Assembly: GCA_965601925.1 (NCBI GenBank)
Contig: OZ271854.1
Span: 2,336,001 to 2,400,000 of the forward strand
Direction: 5' to 3'
Origin: Alkalispirochaeta sp.
Lineage (GTDB): Bacteria; Spirochaetota; Spirochaetia; DSM-27196; Alkalispirochaetaceae
Length of the DNA: 64,000 nucleotides
Shown here in pieces: positions 1,784-10,759 of the stretch. Position numbers and translations under genes: made by a program. Numbering within the stretch: the stretch's first letter is position 1; every line of letters starts with the position of its first letter. The notes beneath the pieces were generated by a model. The model was not told where the DNA came from and did not search any database. It was given only the letters and a program-made list of their open reading frames with translations.

Positions 1784-2017
1784 ATGAAAGAAATTGCCCG
1801 TCATACGGCAGGCCGGATTTATTTGGTGCTGCTCTTGCTGTCGGTCGTCGGGTTCATCGTCTTCTTGGCGATGGGCGGAACGGATGTCGCCGAGAATGGT
1901 GAGCCGATCGTGCTATTCGGTTGGATGACGATGCCGCTGGTCTCGGGAGTCGCCTTCGTTGCATTCTGGCTCATAACCTACATCGTCTACTACTTCTTCT
2001 TTTGGCCGTACCGATAG
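1784..2017 (+). CDS. Small two-TM membrane protein, likely partner subunit of the SSS transporter
   Basis: Two hydrophobic helices; lies directly upstream of the SSS gene, as DUF997/DUF485-type partners do. Confidence 0.7.
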   Translation: MKEIARHTAGRIYLVLLLLSVVGFIVFLAMGGTDVAENGEPIVLFGWMTMPLVSGVAFVAFWLITYIVYYFFFWPYR

Positions 2018-2025
2018 GAGGGCAC

Positions 2026-3570
2026 ATGGTATTTTCCATCTCGGCATTGAGCCTGTTCGGCATCGTGATCGTTCTTATGGCCGCATACGGCTATCGCATA
2101 TCGGCCAAGACCGCAGAGGACTATATGCTCGGCGGGCGAACGATCGGCGTCGTGGTGATGTTTTTCTTCGTTCTCTTTGCGATTTCTTCCGCATGGACGT
2201 TTTACGGGTTTCCCGGTCTCCTCTATACCCAAGGTCCCGGATACGTGATGTTCATTTGGGGCAGTGTCGCCGGTTTTGCCGGCCTCTACATGTTCTTGGG
2301 ACCACGTTTGTGGGCGTTGGCCAAGATCAATCGATTTCTCAGCCCGGTCGAGGTGCTTGCGGAGCGATACCGGTCGCCGATGCTACGCCTCATTTTGAGC
2401 TTAAGTATTCTCGCCTTTATCGTCCCCTATGTTGGAATCCAGCCCTTGGGAGTCGGCGCCGGATTTGAGGCGCTTACGGGGTTGCCCGCCTTTTGGGGAG
2501 CGTTGTATACGACGGTCATCCTCGTCGTCCTGGTTCTGCTGGGTGGGATGCGCATCGTCGCATGGGTCAACATTTTTCTCGGTGTCGTGTATATGACCGC
2601 CCTGTTGGGGAGTTTGTTGTGGGGCGTGCAAGTGCTCTTTCCCGACGGCGGGTTGACTCAGGCTGTGGCTACCTTGGCCGAGACGCGACCGGCGATGCTC
2701 TCAACCCCGGGACCGACGGGCGACTACACGCCCGTAGTGTTGGGAGGTACCTTCGTCGTCGGTATTCTCGCGTTCAGCTGGCCGCACGTGGCGATCGGTT
2801 GCATGACCGCGCGTGACAAGTCGCTCTTCAAGTGGTTTCCGATGCTGATTTTCATCTTCGGAGGGCTCTTTTTCTACATCATTCCCTTTATCTGGGGGTC
2901 GATCGTCGCTCCTGCCGCTTTACCGCTTCAGGAACTGGAGGCGCTTGCCGTCCAAAACGGCGTGGAACTCCAGACCGAGGCCGATAGAGTCGTACAGACG
3001 ATCATTTCACGGAGCTTACCCGAATGGTTCGGCGTCTTCGTTCTGCTCGGCGTCATTGCCGCTGCGGTAAGCACCGCGGCGGTGCAGCTCATGACCTCGA
3101 GCGTCATCGTAAGTCGTGACGTGATTCAAGGACTCTTTTTGCCCGATGCTCGAGACGAGCAAATCACCCGTTGGGCGCGTTTGGCGGTCGTTGCGATCGT
3201 TGTGCTCAGTCTGATCGTAAGCTTTCTCTACCGCGGCGCTATGGCGCTTTATCTGACCGACGTAAGTGTTCCGGGATTCGCGCAGTGGGCTCCCGCGCTG
3301 GTAGGCGGGCTCTTGTGGAAGCGCGGCACCAAACAGGGGGCGGTGGCCGGTACCCTTGCCGGCGTCATCTACCTCGTAGCGAGTCTTCTCGTCGTCGTCG
3401 GCGGAGAGCGGATTCTGGTAGTCGGCCACCCGGTGATCGCGAGCCTTTTGGTGAATACCCTCGTGTATATCATCGTGAGTTTCGCGACACCTCGTCCGGA
3501 CGAGGAGATCGAGACCGTATTCTTCGACGAGGTCGACGCGTATCTCGCCGCCGAGTCGGGATCGCGCTGA
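2026..3570 (+). CDS. Sodium:solute symporter family protein (PanF/PutP-like)
   Basis: EDYMLGGR, SAWTFYGFPG, AAAVST motifs; about 13 TM segments; GGAGG RBS. Confidence 0.9.
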   Translation: MVFSISALSLFGIVIVLMAAYGYRISAKTAEDYMLGGRTIGVVVMFFFVLFAISSAWTFYGFPGLLYTQGPGYVMFIWGSVAGFAGLYMFLGPRLWALAKINRFLSPVEVLAERYRSPMLRLILSLSILAFIVPYVGIQPLGVGAGFEALTGLPAFWGALYTTVILVVLVLLGGMRIVAWVNIFLGVVYMTALLGSLLWGVQVLFPDGGLTQAVATLAETRPAMLSTPGPTGDYTPVVLGGTFVVGILAFSWPHVAIGCMTARDKSLFKWFPMLIFIFGGLFFYIIPFIWGSIVAPAALPLQELEALAVQNGVELQTEADRVVQTIISRSLPEWFGVFVLLGVIAAAVSTAAVQLMTSSVIVSRDVIQGLFLPDARDEQITRWARLAVVAIVVLSLIVSFLYRGAMALYLTDVSVPGFAQWAPALVGGLLWKRGTKQGAVAGTLAGVIYLVASLLVVVGGERILVVGHPVIASLLVNTLVYIIVSFATPRPDEEIETVFFDEVDAYLAAESGSR

Positions 3571-3584
3571 GACGGAGCGTCGGT

Positions 3585-5135
3585 ATGCCTTTCGGCAGGA
3601 AGAACAAGAAGGCCGGCGTAGCGGCCGAAAGGAGCACGGATCGCCCGTTAGCGAACCGGAATGAGAGGGCGTGGCGTCTCATCTATAATCCCGAGGGCGA
3701 TCCGGCCGATGTAGTCGCCTACGGCGCGGCGGTAGCGGAAGGGCGTATCGCGGGCAAGTATCAACTGAGCAATATCAAGGTTCCCAACACGGTGATCGTG
3801 CAGCGCAGCCGCGTCCCCGGCATCATCGTCGGAGCCGATGTACGCATCGATCGCGCGAACGCGTCACGAGAAGGTATCGAGATCGCGCGCACCCAACGTC
3901 AGGGACGAAACGCCGCCAAAACCGTCGGTACGGTGAGTCTGAGCGAGCTCATGGCGCATTCGTCACGAACTTTCGAGGCGGTCCCGATCGAACCCGACGA
4001 TCCGGCGGTGCTCATTTATACCTCCGGTACGACCGGCAACCCCAAAGGCGTGACACTGACTCACCGCAACTTCCATTTTCAGCTCAATACGATTGTTCGG
4101 TCTCTCGTTTCGTTTACTCAAGACGACCGTGTCATCGGAGTCCTGCCGATGTACCACGTCTTCGGATTGGCCAACTCGCTGGTAGCGGCGATCAATTTCG
4201 GAGCGTGTATCGTTCTCGTTCCCCAGTACAGTCCCGCGGCGCTCCTCGCGGCAATCGCCGATAACAACGCGACGATCATGCCGGCGGTCCCGACGATGTA
4301 CCAGCATCTATTGGCCGTCGCGCGGGCGAGAAAGATCGACATTCCTAAGAGTCTTCGTTTTTGCATATCCGGGGGCGCCGCCCTGCCGGTTACCGTGCTG
4401 CGCAGGTTCATGGACTCATTTGAGACGCAGCTCCTCGAAGGATACGGTCTGACCGAAACGACCTCAAGCGTCTGCGCCAACGGCCAGGGAGGCGTGTTTA
4501 AAGAGGGTAGTATCGGGCCGGCTGCAGACGGGGCCGAGATGAGAATCGTCGACGAGGACGGGAGCGAACTCCCCGACGGCGAGGTCGGTGAGATCGTCAT
4601 TCGTAGCACCACCGTTTTCGCCGGTTACTGGGGCAACCCTCAGGCCACGGACGAAGTGATGAGTGACGACGGATGGTTTCATACCGGCGATTTGGCGTAT
4701 CGCGATGAAGACGGTTTTTTCTTCATAACGGATCGAAAAAAGGACATCATCATTACGCGCGGCTATAACGTGAGCCCCCGAGAGGTCGAGGAGGTTCTCA
4801 TGAGCCATCCTATGATTGCCGACGCTGCGGTGGTCGGATTGCCCGGGCGCAAAGATGACGGCGAGTCTATCGTCGCCTTTGTCGTTACCCACGAGGGCGA
4901 GGTAATGGAAGAGAGCGATGTCGCCGCATTTTGTGACGCCGAGTTGGCACCCTACAAACGTCCGAGAACGATCAATATCGTCACCGCTCTCCCCAAGAGC
5001 GCGACCGGCAAGGTGTTGCGAACGCACCTTCGGGGGGAAGCGGATGATCGACGACTGGTGCAACGCGACGACGCCGAGCCTACCGAGCCCACGCAATCGC
5101 GCCGGGCGGCGGCACCCAATGCGGAGGAGGAGTAG
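3585..5135 (+). CDS. Chimeric protein: LplA-like N-terminal half fused to an acyl-CoA ligase core/C-terminal domain that lacks its own N-terminal subdomain
   Basis: YTSGTTGNPKG P-loop, EGYGLTET, WFHTGD, DRKKD, LPKSATGK; residues ~30-107 (WRLI...PNTVIVQR...IVG...GIEIAR) resemble the LplA N-terminus. Confidence 0.8.
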   Translation: MPFGRKNKKAGVAAERSTDRPLANRNERAWRLIYNPEGDPADVVAYGAAVAEGRIAGKYQLSNIKVPNTVIVQRSRVPGIIVGADVRIDRANASREGIEIARTQRQGRNAAKTVGTVSLSELMAHSSRTFEAVPIEPDDPAVLIYTSGTTGNPKGVTLTHRNFHFQLNTIVRSLVSFTQDDRVIGVLPMYHVFGLANSLVAAINFGACIVLVPQYSPAALLAAIADNNATIMPAVPTMYQHLLAVARARKIDIPKSLRFCISGGAALPVTVLRRFMDSFETQLLEGYGLTETTSSVCANGQGGVFKEGSIGPAADGAEMRIVDEDGSELPDGEVGEIVIRSTTVFAGYWGNPQATDEVMSDDGWFHTGDLAYRDEDGFFFITDRKKDIIITRGYNVSPREVEEVLMSHPMIADAAVVGLPGRKDDGESIVAFVVTHEGEVMEESDVAAFCDAELAPYKRPRTINIVTALPKSATGKVLRTHLRGEADDRRLVQRDDAEPTEPTQSRRAAAPNAEEE

Positions 5136-5141
5136 CGACCG

Positions 5142-6071
5142 ATGGCGCTCTTTAAGAAGACTGTTGATATCGACGTACCGATCGGCCTCGGGCACGCGTT
5201 GGAGGCCGTAGTCGCCGCCAGAAAAAAGGGCGAGGCGATCCGCATGGAGGGGCGCGTCTGGACGTATCAAGAGTTGGATGAGCACTCGAGTCGCGTCGCC
5301 GGCGGTCTCGCGTCTCTCGGGATCGGTCGCGGCGATCGCGTTGCGATGATGCTCCCCAACATTCCGGAGTTCGTGTTTACCTTTTTCGGCGTCCAGAAGC
5401 TGGGAGCAGTAGCGGTGCCGTTCAATACAATGTACAAGGGACGGGAGATCAGCTTCATTCTCAAAGACTCGGGCGCGAAGGCGATCGTGTGTCTTTCGAG
5501 CTTCGCCAATCTCATTAACGAGATCAAGAGCGACTGCCCGGATCTCGAGCACGTCGTTGTGACCGGGCAACGCACCCTCGTATTCGTCGACCCCGACGCC
5601 ACGGTCAACATTCAGATGGTCGTTGAGGCGACGACCTTCGATTCCGCCGATGATGCGTTTCGCACCATGGGGGAGGTTTTGGTCGAGACCTACCACTCCC
5701 TCGGCGTCGAGGACGTCTGGTACAAGCATCAAGGCGCAATCCGTTCGCGCGGTAAAAAACTCGCCGTAATGCTGCTGCGTGAGATCGAAGGGCTTTACAT
5801 CTTCAACATAGTAACGTACCTGCGCCAGATGAGTACCGACTCGCTCTTCAAGGTGATCTACGTACCGCCGGAGATCAAAGAACGCGCTCTGGAACCGATG
5901 ACCAGCATCGAGGAACAGACCGGTACCGCGCCCGGTTTGGACACTTTTCGCGATACGTTATCAGCGGCTCTTGAAAAACGGCTCGCTGTGAACTTGGAAC
6001 CGGGGCAGCTGACTCGCGATGAGATTTTGGCGTATGAGAAAAATCGTGCTTTGGCGGCGCGGAGTGTTTGA
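5142..6071 (+). CDS. Chimeric protein: acyl-CoA ligase N-terminal subdomain fused to an LplA/BPL-like C-terminal half
   Basis: TYQELD, GDRVAMMLPNIPEF, GAVAVPFN, LKDSGAKAIV, then LGV...GKKL...MTSIEEQTG...LEPGQLTRDE; no P-loop; GGAGGAG RBS. Confidence 0.75.
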   Translation: MALFKKTVDIDVPIGLGHALEAVVAARKKGEAIRMEGRVWTYQELDEHSSRVAGGLASLGIGRGDRVAMMLPNIPEFVFTFFGVQKLGAVAVPFNTMYKGREISFILKDSGAKAIVCLSSFANLINEIKSDCPDLEHVVVTGQRTLVFVDPDATVNIQMVVEATTFDSADDAFRTMGEVLVETYHSLGVEDVWYKHQGAIRSRGKKLAVMLLREIEGLYIFNIVTYLRQMSTDSLFKVIYVPPEIKERALEPMTSIEEQTGTAPGLDTFRDTLSAALEKRLAVNLEPGQLTRDEILAYEKNRALAARSV

Positions 6072-6096: not shown

Positions 6097-6735
6097 CTAT
6101 CGCGCTACGGCCTCGAAGTTGGCAAGGTCCATGGTGTCGTCGGACATTTGCATGGCGTGCATACCGCGTTCGGTAATGCGCGCTACCGTGTCGGGTTCCA
6201 GATAGAGCGAGCTCATGATCGGTACGACGTCACGGCCGCCGTACTCAGGAAAGTAGTCTAAAACTTCGAGATATGTGTCGGCAAACGAGTCGATGTACTC
6301 GCGACGCATCGTCGCTTTCGTTTCGTTGACGTAGAGCGTGCCGGCCGTTACGGCGATCACATCGAACTCGCGCCGTTTGCCCGGAGTGTTCGGATGTCGC
6401 CGGCGGGGGCGCACCATGAGGAGGTCGAGGTCCTCCTCCGCCACGTTGAAGTAACGACCGAGCACGCCCGGGACGTTGGGGGCTACGATGTCCTCCACGA
6501 TGGTCCCTAAACGATTCGCGAGGTCTCCCCACCGGCGATTAAGAGATCTCCTATCGGCGCGCATTTCATCTTTGAAGGTGTGCATCTCTTCCTTAAATGT
6601 GCGCATTTCCTCCTTGAACTCCTTCATCTCGTGAGAGAGGAGCTCGATCGACCGCTCGGTACGCAATTGGGCGTACGCGAGCTCTTTTAACGCCCATTCG
6701 ATCTCGGAGACGCGGGGTTCCAGCGCCGACGACAT
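6097..6735 (-). CDS. Coiled-coil plus PD-(D/E)XK nuclease-fold protein (DUF3782-like)
   Basis: Heptad repeats EMKEFKE/EMRTFKE/EMHTFKD, WGDLANRLGTIVEDIVAP, EFDVIAV...VNETK. Confidence 0.7.
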   Translation of the reverse strand: MSSALEPRVSEIEWALKELAYAQLRTERSIELLSHEMKEFKEEMRTFKEEMHTFKDEMRADRRSLNRRWGDLANRLGTIVEDIVAPNVPGVLGRYFNVAEEDLDLLMVRPRRRHPNTPGKRREFDVIAVTAGTLYVNETKATMRREYIDSFADTYLEVLDYFPEYGGRDVVPIMSSLYLEPDTVARITERGMHAMQMSDDTMDLANFEAVAR

Positions 6736-6834
6736 GTCTTCCCTCCGCCTAGTGGCCACGGTATACAGTGTATAGCACCGCAAAGCGGAACGTCACGCTT
6801 TTTGTGTACCGGCGATACGTGTCGCGTCCGTGTA

Positions 6835-8268
6835 TTACCCGTATGTTTCGACGTAGGCCTCAAAGGCGTCGTGGAAGCACGTTTCCGGCGGCTTTACGAG
6901 ACCTGCGCCGACCATTCCGACACCCGGGTCTTTGTGCGCGATACCGGTATTGATCGCGGGGAGTACGCCCGTTTCCACCACCTTGACGACGTCGATCGCC
7001 GTCGGCGTGCCGCGAAAATCCATCGCCGGAATCTGATACGCATCGTTCTCGGCCATCGTAATCTCATACATCTGACGGGTAACGTTCAACGCATCGGCCG
7101 GCTTGCCGCCTACGAACTTGACGATCGCCGGGGCCGCCGCCATCGCAAAGCCCCCGATACCGCTCGTTTCGGTGATGACTGAGTCTCCGATGTCTCGCGC
7201 TGCGTCGTCTGCGGTGAAACCGGGAAGATAGAGCCCGTCGATCACCGACGCCGGTCCGGTGAACCATCGATCGGGCATCGATGAGATGCGGATACCGAAC
7301 TCCGTTCCGTTACGCGCCATGGTATAGATGAACGAACTCCCATCGATACCGGCCGCCGCGTCGACGGTGCACTTCGCCGCCGGCATCGTCAGGTTGAGAA
7401 AGAAGTGATCGTTCTCGTGCATGAAGCGCAGTACGCGCGCGATCTTCTCCCGCGGCTCCTCAAGCATCACCAAGTACGGCGCCGTCTCCCGAATGAAAAG
7501 ACTCGTGCCGGCGCGATTACGATTGTGTCCCTCATCGCCCATTTGAAGCACTTGGGCGATGAGGTTTTTCATATCTATCGGGCCGTGGGCCCGCAACGCT
7601 GCGCCCAAGATCGGCGCGAGTTCGTCCGCCATCCACCTAAGGCGGTCGATCACCTCTTGTGAGTTGGCTCCGTAGCGCAGCACCTTGCCCAGTCCTTCGT
7701 TGAGTGTGCAGTAGGCACGGTTACCGAACGCGGCGTTCTCCATGATCCATACGGGCATACTGGCGGTCACCACGCCCGCCATGGGGCCGACGGCGCTATG
7801 GTGATGACACGGATCGAACGTTATCTCTCCGGACGCCGCGAGCTTCTCGGCTTCCTCTCGATCGGATGCCAGTCCTTCGTATATCAGACCGCCGATTACC
7901 GCACCGCGCAGCGGACCGGACATGTCGAACCACTCCACCGGCGGCCCGGCGTGGAGGATGAGTTTCTTGTGCATACCGGGAACCACGTCGGCGGCGATGC
8001 CGATATCGACGAGGGTAGGCTTGCCGGCCTGCACGCGTCGTACCGCCTCTGCGTTGGCCTCCTTGCGGTTGAGCGTACCCGACGCTTCGGCCGCCTCGAG
8101 ACGATCGAAGAGCGAGATCAAATGAGCGTTGCCCCCGGCCGGCGGTCGCCAGTCCACCTGAAGCGTTCGTACGTCCAGGGACCGAAGTGTATCCGCAAAT
8201 CCTTCGAGTCCCAGATTGACGACTTTGAGATCTTGTTTGAATAGATCGTTAATGCTCTTGACGTTCAT
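6835..8268 (-). CDS. DUF1116 protein (YahG/YlbE(AllG)-like transcarbamylase subunit)
   Basis: LHAGPP, PCHHHSAVGPMAG, NEGLGKVLRYGA, MGDEGHNRN, DIGDSVITET, INTGIAH; YahG-type N-terminal VNLGL...VDWRPPAGG segment. Confidence 0.9.
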   Translation of the reverse strand: MNVKSINDLFKQDLKVVNLGLEGFADTLRSLDVRTLQVDWRPPAGGNAHLISLFDRLEAAEASGTLNRKEANAEAVRRVQAGKPTLVDIGIAADVVPGMHKKLILHAGPPVEWFDMSGPLRGAVIGGLIYEGLASDREEAEKLAASGEITFDPCHHHSAVGPMAGVVTASMPVWIMENAAFGNRAYCTLNEGLGKVLRYGANSQEVIDRLRWMADELAPILGAALRAHGPIDMKNLIAQVLQMGDEGHNRNRAGTSLFIRETAPYLVMLEEPREKIARVLRFMHENDHFFLNLTMPAAKCTVDAAAGIDGSSFIYTMARNGTEFGIRISSMPDRWFTGPASVIDGLYLPGFTADDAARDIGDSVITETSGIGGFAMAAAPAIVKFVGGKPADALNVTRQMYEITMAENDAYQIPAMDFRGTPTAIDVVKVVETGVLPAINTGIAHKDPGVGMVGAGLVKPPETCFHDAFEAYVETYG

Positions 8269-8279
8269 GGTGTGCTCCT

Positions 8280-9845
8280 TCAGCGCGATCCCAATGCGGC
8301 CATAATCCGCCCCGCGAGCCGTGCCGCTTGATGGTTCGACGGCATGACGACCGCTCCCGCATCTTCCAGCGTACTGCGTTGCGTCGACAGACGTTGGACG
8401 TCTCCCTCGGTGCCGGTTACGCTCGCCACGACGGCCAGATAGCCGCCGCGTTGTGCCGCCGCCTCTTTCATCATCCGGATCGCCGGGGCGAGCGCGCCCG
8501 CGGGGTCGGGATGGCTGCCGTATCCGATAACGCAGTCCAAAATGACGACCGCCACCTCGGTGTCGGCAGCCTCTCGCTCCATGCGTTCGGTGCGTATGGA
8601 CGGATCGATCATCGGGTGCGGCCGTCCGACGGTAAAGATATCTTCGCCCAGATCCACGATCGTGTGTTGTTGCGAGACGTGCGGATCGCGCAGCGCAAAT
8701 TGTCGGTCCGCGGGATCGAAGGAGTGCACGCCGCCCAACGCATCGTTGAGCACGAAGACGGCCTCGTCGGTGAGCGTTCCGCCGGTGAAGTAACCGCGCA
8801 GATACCGTTGGCCCGATGCGATGCTCGCGGTCTCCCGTTCGACAATTGCGTCGATGTGTTCGTCCGAGAGCGCAAAGGGCCGTTCACGATATGATCTCCC
8901 TTTCGCGAGCGCAACGGCCGAGAGGGCGGCCTCTTCCAGGTTGCCGGCGTAGTGGAGTGTGCTGCCGGTCGCCGACGCGTCTCGTTGTAACCCGATGAGG
9001 TGCACGACCGCCGGCTTACCCGTCTTCTCGAGCGAGGCGAGCACCGTGTCGGCCACCGCCGGCGCAGGGGGCTTCGAGATGACGACGATGACCTTCGTCT
9101 CATCGTCCGCGGCAAGCGCCTCGATGGCCATCAGCGTCGTCGATCCGCCGACCTCTTCACTTTTGAGATCACGGCCTCCGGTACCGATCGCCTGCCGTAC
9201 TCCGCCTCCCGCCTTCGCAATCAGACTCGTAACTTCCTGTAATCCGGTGCCGGACGCGCTCACAACGCCGATCGATCCCTCCGGCACTACATTGGCGAAG
9301 CACAGAGGCTTACCGTTAATGATTGCCGTGCCGCAGTCGGGACCCATCATGAGTAAGCCTCGCTCGCGGGCGATTCGCTTGAGTGCGACCTCCTCGTCGA
9401 GCCCGACATTGTCGGAGAACATCATAACGTGACGGCCGGATACGAGCGCCTTGCGCGCCTCACGTGCGGCGTACTGTCCGGGGAGCGATATTACAACCAG
9501 GTTCGCGTCGCTCATCGCCTCGAACGCCGCGGCCGTGCTCGCCGGACGCCATCGCTCTCCTTCGCCCTCGTCGGCTTTTTTGCGGAGGAGCGCGTCGACC
9601 GTCTCTTCGGCGATCGATGCAACGTCCGCGGAGTCCGCATCGACGGCGATGATAAGATCGTTGGCGGTCGCGCCGTCAAGCTCGGTTCCGCCCAGCTTCA
9701 TGTCGTTCAGAAGATCGAGGTTCATCTCGGTTCCCATAGCGACGACCGCCTCCGAGATACCCTCCATCTTTTTTATGTCGGCGCTGATCAACATGAGGAA
9801 CACCGAATCGTAGTATGAGTCCTTGCGTAGGATGATCCGCTTCAT
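8280..9845 (-). CDS. fdrA: FdrA/YahF-like acyl-CoA synthetase-fold protein (AllF-like)
   Basis: YYDSVFLM, MGPDCGTA, ASGTGLQE, GTGGRDL, GRPHPMIDP, GYGSHPDP; GAGG RBS. Confidence 0.9.
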   Translation of the reverse strand: MKRIILRKDSYYDSVFLMLISADIKKMEGISEAVVAMGTEMNLDLLNDMKLGGTELDGATANDLIIAVDADSADVASIAEETVDALLRKKADEGEGERWRPASTAAAFEAMSDANLVVISLPGQYAAREARKALVSGRHVMMFSDNVGLDEEVALKRIARERGLLMMGPDCGTAIINGKPLCFANVVPEGSIGVVSASGTGLQEVTSLIAKAGGGVRQAIGTGGRDLKSEEVGGSTTLMAIEALAADDETKVIVVISKPPAPAVADTVLASLEKTGKPAVVHLIGLQRDASATGSTLHYAGNLEEAALSAVALAKGRSYRERPFALSDEHIDAIVERETASIASGQRYLRGYFTGGTLTDEAVFVLNDALGGVHSFDPADRQFALRDPHVSQQHTIVDLGEDIFTVGRPHPMIDPSIRTERMEREAADTEVAVVILDCVIGYGSHPDPAGALAPAIRMMKEAAAQRGGYLAVVASVTGTEGDVQRLSTQRSTLEDAGAVVMPSNHQAARLAGRIMAALGSR

Positions 9846-9898
9846 CGTGAACCTCTCTTTCCGTGGTACGTAGACGCTATACCCGCCGGCGATTCGTG

Positions 9899-10759
9899 TC
9901 AAACCGACGGCACGGTGTCGTCTCGCGGTCGAACCTGTAGTCCCCATAAGAGCCCCGTCAGAGCGTCGAGTCCGGAGCTGTGGCCGTGCGAACGTGCGAT
10001 TCTAATAGCCTCCGCGACGCGTCCCGTGGCGAGCGCATCTACGATGCGCAGTTGGTAGGTCGGCGGATAGCCGGCCAGCGCGACGCGCAAGAGCGAGGCG
10101 CCGCCGGCGGTAGTCTTGGACAACGCGCGTTCTACCTCGTCGTGGTCTACGAGCCGTGTGCCGAGGAGGATTTCGGCGGCGAGCACACCGCTGACGAAAT
10201 CGTCTCCCGACGGTGTAAACCCGCCGCCCAACCCCACCAGGCGGGCGATCGCACGGGATCGTGGGGTCGACCCGCCGTACAGCGTCGCGACGGCACGGTG
10301 GACGAAGGGGTCGTCGTCGAATCGACGGCTGTGTTCCGAGGACGCGGGATCGATAAGGAGTGCTACGAAGCCGATCGTCCCGTGGTCGATAAGGAGGCGG
10401 TCCCGGGCCGTCGATATCGTGCGTGTCGACGGACGGGTCGTCGGTGAGGGGCGCGGCGGCGTCGGCCCGCGCTCAACGGGGAACGACGTCTCAGCGTTTC
10501 CGACGACGAGCACTCCCTCGGCCGTTAAGAGCACCGGAACGGTCGTCCCTTCGCTCCGCGTCGCCGTCGTAATGACGGGCCACATCGCGTGGGGCACCGC
10601 AATGGATAGTTCGGTCCAATCTCCGCGATCGCGCGTCAATGAGACGAAGTACGCGCCGCGCCGGTCCCGTAGCGCGATATTGACGGCTGCGTCGTGAACA
10701 CTCGCGACGGTTCCCGCGAAGCGTTCGGGGACGAGCTTTCCACGCGTTAGCTGGGCCAT
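9899..10759 (-). CDS. DUF2877 protein (YahE/YlbF(AllH)-like)
   Basis: LVGLGGGFTPSGDDFVSG and GHSSGLDALTG motifs; adjacent to fdrA. Confidence 0.85.
   Translation of the reverse strand: MAQLTRGKLVPERFAGTVASVHDAAVNIALRDRRGAYFVSLTRDRGDWTELSIAVPHAMWPVITTATRSEGTTVPVLLTAEGVLVVGNAETSFPVERGPTPPRPSPTTRPSTRTISTARDRLLIDHGTIGFVALLIDPASSEHSRRFDDDPFVHRAVATLYGGSTPRSRAIARLVGLGGGFTPSGDDFVSGVLAAEILLGTRLVDHDEVERALSKTTAGGASLLRVALAGYPPTYQLRIVDALATGRVAEAIRIARSHGHSSGLDALTGLLWGLQVRPRDDTVPSV

Follow-up and report, generated by a model that had tools for sequence, protein, structure and literature searches.

Two adjacent genes of the spirochaete Alkalispirochaeta sp., here called A and B, together encode a FadD-like acyl-CoA ligase of the ANL type and the catalytic domain of a lipoate ligase (LplA), both of which are cut and joined crosswise to a part of the other. 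The genes lie in a stretch of 64,000 nucleotides (contig OZ271854.1, positions 2,336,001 to 2,400,000), referred to as the window; coordinates without a prefix are positions in it. The order across the pair is LplA-N, ANL-C (gene A) and then ANL-N, LplA-C (gene B). We consider it somewhat probable that A and B belong to a cassette for the uptake and CoA activation of an acid, in which the A-B heterodimer would form acyl-CoA and a dead LplA fold would act as a clamp and, probably, as a docking surface.

Architecture of the gene pair

The genes and their segments are the following.

Gene A, 3585-5135, + strand: 516 amino acids (aa), N-half of LplA fused to the catalytic C-part of an ANL enzyme
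A residues 30-108, 3672..3908, + strand: N-half of the LplA catalytic domain, with an invariant RxGR at its end
A residues 113-490, 3921..5054, + strand: ANL motifs a3-a10, with the catalytic Lys476 at 5010-5012
Shine-Dalgarno-like GGAGGAGGAG for gene B, 5123-5132, + strand: within the last codons of A
Gene B, 5142-6071, + strand: 309 aa, ANL N-subdomain fused to the C-half of LplA
B residues 16-142, 5187..5567, + strand: ANL N-terminal subdomain, motifs a1-a2
B residues 143-305, 5568..6056, + strand: C-half of the LplA catalytic domain, with Lys206 at 5757-5759

An earlier note on this DNA, made from the letters alone, had described the same crossed architecture, with both reading frames intact and a ribosome-binding site at the junction. 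The frames are indeed open at 3585-5135 and 5142-6071, the Shine-Dalgarno-like element is present, and the order of the segments is upheld by the Pfam, profile-profile and model evidence given below. The GGAGGAGGAG element immediately precedes the stop codon of A and the ATG of B, the gap between the two genes being 6 bases. In related loci the distance from the stop of A to the start of B is -14..+10 bases in 44/53 cases (from rough start picks). Databases label both genes as acyl-CoA synthetase or AMP-binding protein and nothing more.

Because both enzymes are split over A and B, the two proteins probably must fold together, and an obligate heterodimer is predicted. No fused A-B form was scored among proteins of 542-2000 aa, which is weak evidence, and all 102 matches to the N-half of A are proteins of 450-536 aa with an AMP-binding domain. 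A single fused A+B record of 812 aa (P0330) stands on one contig. It was rejected as a true fusion and is a probable indel error, since its junction resembles the 5' end of B out of frame and unfused forms of its cluster stand on 106 and 80 contigs.

The divided acyl-CoA ligase

The Pfam AMP-binding family is divided between the two proteins, with positions 151-384 matching A 111-349 and positions 5-126 matching B 24-139. The two parts thus complement each other, and a complete ANL N-terminal domain is obtained from A and B together only. The break falls between motifs a2 and a3: B ends after a2 and A resumes before a3. Motif a3 (the P-loop) is kept in 53/54 A proteins and a5 in 54/54, and the a7/a8 core and the a10 lysine (Lys476) in all 53 full-length A rows. 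Judged by these retained catalytic motifs, the ligase looks active. The best NCBIfam family for both parts is the long-chain-fatty-acid--CoA ligase PRK06187, with 391 bits for A and 109 bits for B (cut-off 476; the sum is a rough guide only). The predicted reaction would be the formation of acyl-CoA from acid, ATP and CoA, with CoA as the presumed acceptor.

Parentage of the LplA halves

Positions 68-199 of the family LplA-B_cat match B 147-277 with an E of 3e-4, which is under the cut-off; in a second copy of the pair in the same genome the match exceeds it. No Pfam family matched the first 107 residues of A, and PDB sequence searches with profiles of either LplA half gave nothing relevant; the link to LplA came via unsplit intermediates. 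A profile of the C-half of B, built from 44 sequences and searched against 1.84 billion sequences, found 63 representatives, including unsplit proteins of ~365 aa that were aligned from residue 81 on. According to NCBIfam and PDB sequence searches these unsplit relatives consist of LplA plus LplB, and the named ones are archaeal (Freyarchaeota/Jordarchaeia, Sulfolobus and Bathyarchaeota). Their profile supplied the LplA match that had been envisaged for each leftover half, with a profile-profile probability of 97.5% (E 8e-12) for the N-half of A and 99.9% for the C-half of B. In the closest unsplit protein (locus L138), residues 5-73 align to A 30-102 (41.6% identity over 77 aa by BLAST; 53.5 bits, where 200 shuffles reached at most 23.5) and residues 82-245 to B 147-305 (29.3% identity). 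The 8 residues between these alignments are its RRLGVGGG loop; the cut point of the split LplA fold is the RRxxGGG loop, described as the lipoate-binding loop (10.1101/2022.01.03.474776). Both halves therefore match one unsplit LplAB subfamily end to end, in line with the complementarity claimed for them. Neither half was matched significantly by the ordinary LplA of this genome.

For the structure model of the N-half of A the top 8 of 48,161 PDB chains all belonged to the LplA/LipB family (Z 2.9-3.7, weak alone). The model of B matches both ANL enzymes and LplA/LipB/biotin-ligase chains (against 2ars: Z 11.6, root-mean-square deviation 3.4, 145 aligned). An interface between the complementary halves, which the earlier note had thought worth predicting, was obtained when the two LplA halves were modelled together, with a score of 0.89 against 0.01 for the best control; this mark is reached by 116/157 solved complexes and 2/215 mismatched pairs. 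Contact agreement between the model runs was at least 89% and the predicted local distance difference test score (pLDDT) of the partner at least 79. Since the halves of a split fold can pass through likeness to solved LplA, the model is taken to indicate compatibility rather than binding.

A quick tree of 67 C-half rows places the 18 split forms in one group among mostly archaeal relatives (support of 99 in the Shimodaira-Hasegawa-like approximate likelihood ratio test, SH-aLRT). A branch with support 99 separates them from 12 of the 13 rows of ordinary spirochaete LplA; the thirteenth, L109, has a long branch and was probably badly cut. The alignments and the tree indicate that the LplA halves descend from a mostly archaeal subfamily of fused LplAB proteins.

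Members of this parent subfamily have features of their own. The Sulfolobus-type member (L141 and L146, ~7821-8966) sits inside a fatty-acid oxidation cluster that contains acyl-CoA dehydrogenase, thiolases, hydratases and an ANL ligase. The usual HGT motif is missing from the subfamily, and its own role may be a different one. Two diverged paralogues (L133 and L137) stand on one metagenome contig.

Loss and retention of LplA features

The LplA part had been called degenerate by the earlier note, and the comparison with unsplit relatives agrees with this: the loop, the Asp and the pocket glycines are gone. The RRxxGGG loop is found in 0/54 A proteins, which have the invariant RxGR where the parent has RRxGxGGG, and the YQD segment of the parent is shortened in the split forms. 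The conserved Asp of the (N/G)D motif of LplA binds metal; it is present in 23/23 unsplit relatives and replaced by Ala, Ser, Val or Thr in 43/44 split forms. The glycine of K-x-x-G, kept in 20/23 unsplit relatives, is Thr, Asn, Ser or Val in 40/44 split forms. KITGFG of the parent has mostly become KLATIL, the first Gly being retained in deep-branching forms, and the two glycines after the catalytic Lys are mostly Thr and Leu/Ile/Val. Neither LplA half has a conserved cysteine of the LipB/LipM/LipL catalytic type (best column 14/44). An LplB-like tail was found neither in the genome (ordinary lplA aside) nor at 59 pair loci, both positive controls being detected; LplB, or the corresponding C-terminal domain, is reported to be needed for lipoyl-AMP synthesis (PMC7253636).

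Other positions are strictly kept. Arg105 and Arg108 of A and Arg144 and Arg201 of B are invariant, and many further new invariant residues lie outside the old catalytic motifs; many of these (EGRxxGKY, RDE..YxK) are located in the modelled A-B interface. Overall, the LplA fold looks catalytically dead but strongly conserved. Ordinary lplA, lipB and lipA genes are present in this genome, and an LplA/LipB-family gene above the Pfam cut-off occurs in 60/61 genomes of the order.

Distribution and selection

A near full-length match to B is present in 42/61 related genomes, and the C-half of B in 12/401 genomes sampled across the phylum. The record titles of the relatives name Spirochaetota. One B-type cluster with a TA06 member was found outside this phylum; in an Atlas cluster of 53, with the phylum known for 14, Thermodesulfobacteriota is the commonest. 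Overall, the pair is found in most families of one spirochaete order and in one family of another class. This genome holds a second, diverged A-B copy (G000:C1:1096463-1098925, equal to L052:8461-10925, - strand), which is ~44-67% identical by segment and stands without a symporter. A search of plasmids gave no match.

We examined 61 loci, 57 of them distinct. The earlier note had suggested other genomes as a place to look for the pair, and 54 of the 57 distinct loci carry all four segments in A-then-B order, single-contig genomes included (one of the 54 has a shortened A). Of the other three, one is interrupted by a scaffold gap, one runs into a contig end and one holds a pair whose two genes have both decayed (L074:7642-9212, genome G052); no symporter was found in the genome with the decayed pair. 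The ratio of nonsynonymous to synonymous substitution (dN/dS), determined for 13 close pairs and pooled over unsaturated ones, was 0.051 for A-LplA, 0.049 for A-ANL, 0.036 for B-ANL and 0.068 for B-LplA. With dN far below dS in every segment, all four segments are under purifying selection.

These data bear on the possibility that the pair consists of ordinary lplA and fadD genes, joined by misassembly or by an accident now in decay; the earlier note had named misassembly among the findings that could overturn its reading. The decayed pair of G052 speaks for such an explanation. We consider it extremely improbable, as the ordered segments in 54/57 distinct loci (some in single-contig genomes) and the purifying selection (dN/dS below 0.07) show that the pair is not a misassembly, and independent genomes refute it. 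The diverged second copy argues against it as well, as do the contigs of one sample that span the stretch without differences, though this sample is possibly the source of the DNA.

The symporter cassette and its neighbourhood

Two further genes stand directly upstream of the pair.

Small two-helix membrane protein, 1784..2017, + strand: 77 aa, first gene of the cassette, no Pfam family
Sodium:solute symporter, 2026..3570, + strand: 514 aa, Pfam SSF, uncharacterised subfamily

The A-B pair thus closes a four-gene cassette (small membrane protein, symporter, A, B). The earlier note had the architecture of the pair right but missed both the symporter and the small membrane protein, as well as the archaeal-type LplAB origin. 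The symporter lies immediately 5' of A in 51/57 distinct loci and is 60-91% identical among them. The 77-aa protein, probably the companion subunit of the symporter, is found upstream of it in 47/57 loci; the 4 loci that have the symporter but not this protein are cut off by a contig edge. Of the 6 loci without symporter, two stop at a contig end, one has the gap, one is the decayed pair and two are second copies. Of 61 genomes, 41 contain both symporter and B and 15 contain neither, counts that include kin and are not independent; in the 4 symporter-only genomes the locus ends at a contig edge, A still being visible in 3, and the single B-only genome is that of the decayed pair. The symporter scores 37 bits against ActP (cut-off 750), 66 against MctP (625) and 103 against PutP (515), all under the equivalog cut-offs, and no solved structure close enough to name its substrate was found.

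Both intact copies without a symporter adjoin acyl-CoA genes. One (L025:4064-12292) is followed directly by thiolase and FadJ-like genes and has a FadE-like gene in its vicinity, and the other, the second copy in this genome (L052), is divergent from a 3-oxoacid CoA-transferase gene pair. In the 57 loci, judged from clusters and sequence starts, there are no further recurring neighbours beyond close relatives, and no lipoyl-domain, GcvH, lipA or other carrier gene recurs nearby; the same holds for nonribosomal peptide synthetase (NRPS) genes. No riboswitch or other Rfam element is tied to the cassette in 12 loci and the window, and the counts of promoters and terminators near it are close to chance. 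A broader role in replacing lipoate or fatty-acid synthesis was rejected (lipA is present in 38/41 pair genomes and fabF in 61/61 genomes), and no general link to beta-oxidation was found, FadB/J-like genes not tracking the pair.

The neighbourhood also bears on a carrier-protein ligase, in which the ANL site would directly acylate an acyl-carrier protein or a domain of lipoyl/biotinyl type, presented to it on the retained acceptor-docking surface of the dead LplA fold. Lipoate ligases have been described to recognise their acceptors by broad surfaces and not by short motifs (10.64898/2026.10.01.755906). The many new invariants outside the old catalytic motifs would suit such a role, as would a cassette that beta-oxidation does not track. 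The fact that no carrier gene recurs in the cassette, the position of many of these invariants (EGRxxGKY, RDE..YxK) in the modelled A-B interface and the CoA-dependent genes next to two of the copies make it quite unlikely in our judgment.

Several other features were observed around the cassette. At 1750-1786 the first cassette gene is without a Shine-Dalgarno sequence, and in several relatives a hexamer resembling a -10 element lies a short distance before the ATG; in that subgroup the transcript of this gene may be leaderless. Divergent from the cassette is a Cyclase (kynurenine formamidase-like) gene (400-1530, - strand). AllH-, FdrA/AllF- and AllG-like oxamate carbamoyltransferase genes (6835-10759, - strand) are convergent on it and are shared with close relatives alone. 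Between the pair and allG lies a gene for a 228-aa coiled-coil protein (6097-6783, - strand) with weak DUF3782 and nuclease-related matches; related loci that have retained allG did not show it at the corresponding position. Elsewhere, L054:9700-10800 gives short regular repeats in its translations that resemble a CRISPR array, and L078:1023-1182 holds an M-box magnesium riboswitch unrelated to the cassette.

Proposed function and alternatives

In the proposed mechanism, the symporter, by family a sodium:solute transporter, would together with its small companion use Na+ to import what is presumably a carboxylic acid. A and B, made together, would assemble into a heterodimer that rebuilds both the ANL ligase and the LplA fold; the complementarity is observed in the sequences, the interface of the LplA halves in models, and the full complex is extrapolated from these. 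The ANL site, with its motifs in place, would convert the acid to acyl-AMP and then, given CoA as acceptor, to acyl-CoA, thereby trapping it. Having lost its catalytic features, the LplA fold would clamp the split ligase without catalysis and would probably also offer a docking surface, for which the symporter is the obvious partner. The substrate is most likely a short- or medium-chain fatty-acid-like acid, octanoate or lipoate being possible. Among the roles that the earlier note had offered for the LplA part, a scaffold is best supported and an acyl or lipoyl transferase least.

A number of observations weigh against this proposal. Lys206 of B, the equivalent of Lys133 of the E. coli enzyme, is kept in 44/44 aligned spirochaete sequences. 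The LplA halves are constrained as strongly as the ligase, perhaps beyond the needs of a passive clamp. The best NCBIfam match of the symporter is panF, a vitamin transporter (116 bits, cut-off 328), and the 2 intact pair copies without a symporter speak against docking to it. A FadB/J-like gene is present in just 17/41 intact-pair genomes versus 8/20 others, so long-chain beta-oxidation is not the general sink.

It is possible, if doubtful, that two crossed adenylating folds are both still used, the ANL part activating imported lipoate, octanoate or another acid and the LplA fold passing the acyl group to a protein lysine or docking the acceptor. If true, proteins would be acylated, or lipoate salvaged, by a new route with a dedicated sodium symporter coupled to it. 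An unlikely but explicit scheme is a two-step lipoyl or octanoyl ligase: the ANL part would make lipoyl- or octanoyl-AMP (or -CoA) in place of the LplB-dependent step, the LplA fold would transfer the acyl group to the lysine of a lipoyl domain, and the symporter would import lipoate or octanoate. The invariance of Lys206 fits such a transfer, and the ANL halves enter exactly at the lipoate-binding loop, so that the ligase may be positioned where the old site opens. There is also a precedent in LIPT1, described as a transfer-only 'half ligase', the C-terminal domain of LplA being needed for lipoyl-AMP (PMC7253636). The genomes with the pair have lipA in 38/41 cases versus 12/20 for the others, a difference confounded by completeness and kinship. 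The lost loop, Asp and pocket glycines and the lack of a catalytic Cys, however, argue against transfer, and in the TA06 relative P0210 the lysine itself is replaced by Arg. The neighbourhood clusters of the 57 loci contain no recurring lipoyl-domain, GcvH or lipA gene, and 60/61 genomes of the order already have an LplA/LipB-family gene.

At least as unlikely as the carrier-protein ligase is a regulated ligase with the LplA fold as an allosteric site, in which Lys206 and the new arginines would bind a nucleotide or the phosphate of CoA and so tune the ligase. As described in 10.1101/2022.01.03.474776, the corresponding Lys makes contact with AMP in LplA and with the CoA 3'-phosphate in LipB; the Lys-to-Arg change of the TA06 relative preserves the charge. 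The invariance of Arg105 and Arg108 (A) and Arg144 and Arg201 (B) fits such a site, but the same residues may be purely structural.

The cassette for uptake and CoA activation is thus the reading that we retain. The gene pair itself could have arisen in one event, in which a fadD-like gene, opened at the a2-a3 loop as if from a small circle, would have entered an archaeal-type lplAB gene at the lipoate-binding loop, with loss of the LplB tail. We infer the insertion of a circularised fadD-like gene into lplAB from its fit to the order of the segments and to the natural N-termini of both genes.

Comparison with known systems

Both ANL parts are closest to FadD-type ligases (PRK06187; PDB 8r2q, 3r44), and all adenylation motifs of these are found across A and B; unlike them, the ligase is encoded on two genes, in reversed order, each part being fused to half an LplA fold. 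A foreign domain between motifs a2 and a3 is also known from interrupted NRPS adenylation domains (a2-a3 families 3, 4 and 7; PMC8341866). In those, a whole active methyltransferase is inserted in a single chain, whereas in the A-B pair the insert is a halved LplA fold, present on two chains and in crossed order, and the ligase is acyl-CoA-ligase-like with no NRPS module. The words 'lipoate' and 'split' are absent from the main text of that paper.

Lpl(AB) and the bipartite archaeal LplAB ligases are split between domains, into LplA plus LplB (PMC10332631). The LplA halves of A and B descend, as indicated above, from mostly archaeal fused relatives of these ligases, but are split inside the catalytic domain, are without LplB and have lost the catalytic motifs. 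'Acyl-CoA' and 'Spirochaet' do not occur in the main text of the paper on bipartite ligases. LIPT1 of vertebrates, an amidotransferase of one chain that aligns with the N-terminal 75% of LplA (PMC7253636), shares with the pair an LplA fold unable to make lipoyl-AMP by itself; in A and B the cut falls in the lipoate-binding loop. The acs-yjcH-actP operon of E. coli, which serves acetate assimilation (PMC6498577), likewise combines a CoA ligase of the ANL type with a small protein and a permease for the uptake and activation of a carboxylate. Acs of E. coli is one ordinary chain, whereas the ligase described here is FadD-like and not Acs-like, and the 37 bits of the symporter compare with a cut-off of 750 for ActP.

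The earlier note knew of no described system with this architecture, and targeted literature searches, the coverage of which mostly leaves out subscription papers, found no published account of it either. The accessible text of a survey of adenylate-forming enzymes (10.1101/856955) makes no mention of 'lipoate' or 'LplA'.

Significance

The architecture is outside the kinds found in the literature; the chemistry is probably familiar. In known split or interrupted enzymes, one protein is cut or a whole domain is placed in another; in the A-B pair the cuts lie within a domain of each of two unrelated enzymes, which are cross-joined over two genes. Since the LplA half has a close unsplit parent, one can follow position by position how the fold was rearranged and how its catalytic residues were subsequently lost. 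The pair is a natural test case for the origin and fixation of an obligate heteromer, and for the reason why a dead enzyme fold is retained. In addition, it points to two sites at which splitting is tolerated and to an uncharacterised subfamily of symporters that is highly conserved, in an arrangement that occurs in many free-living spirochaetes.

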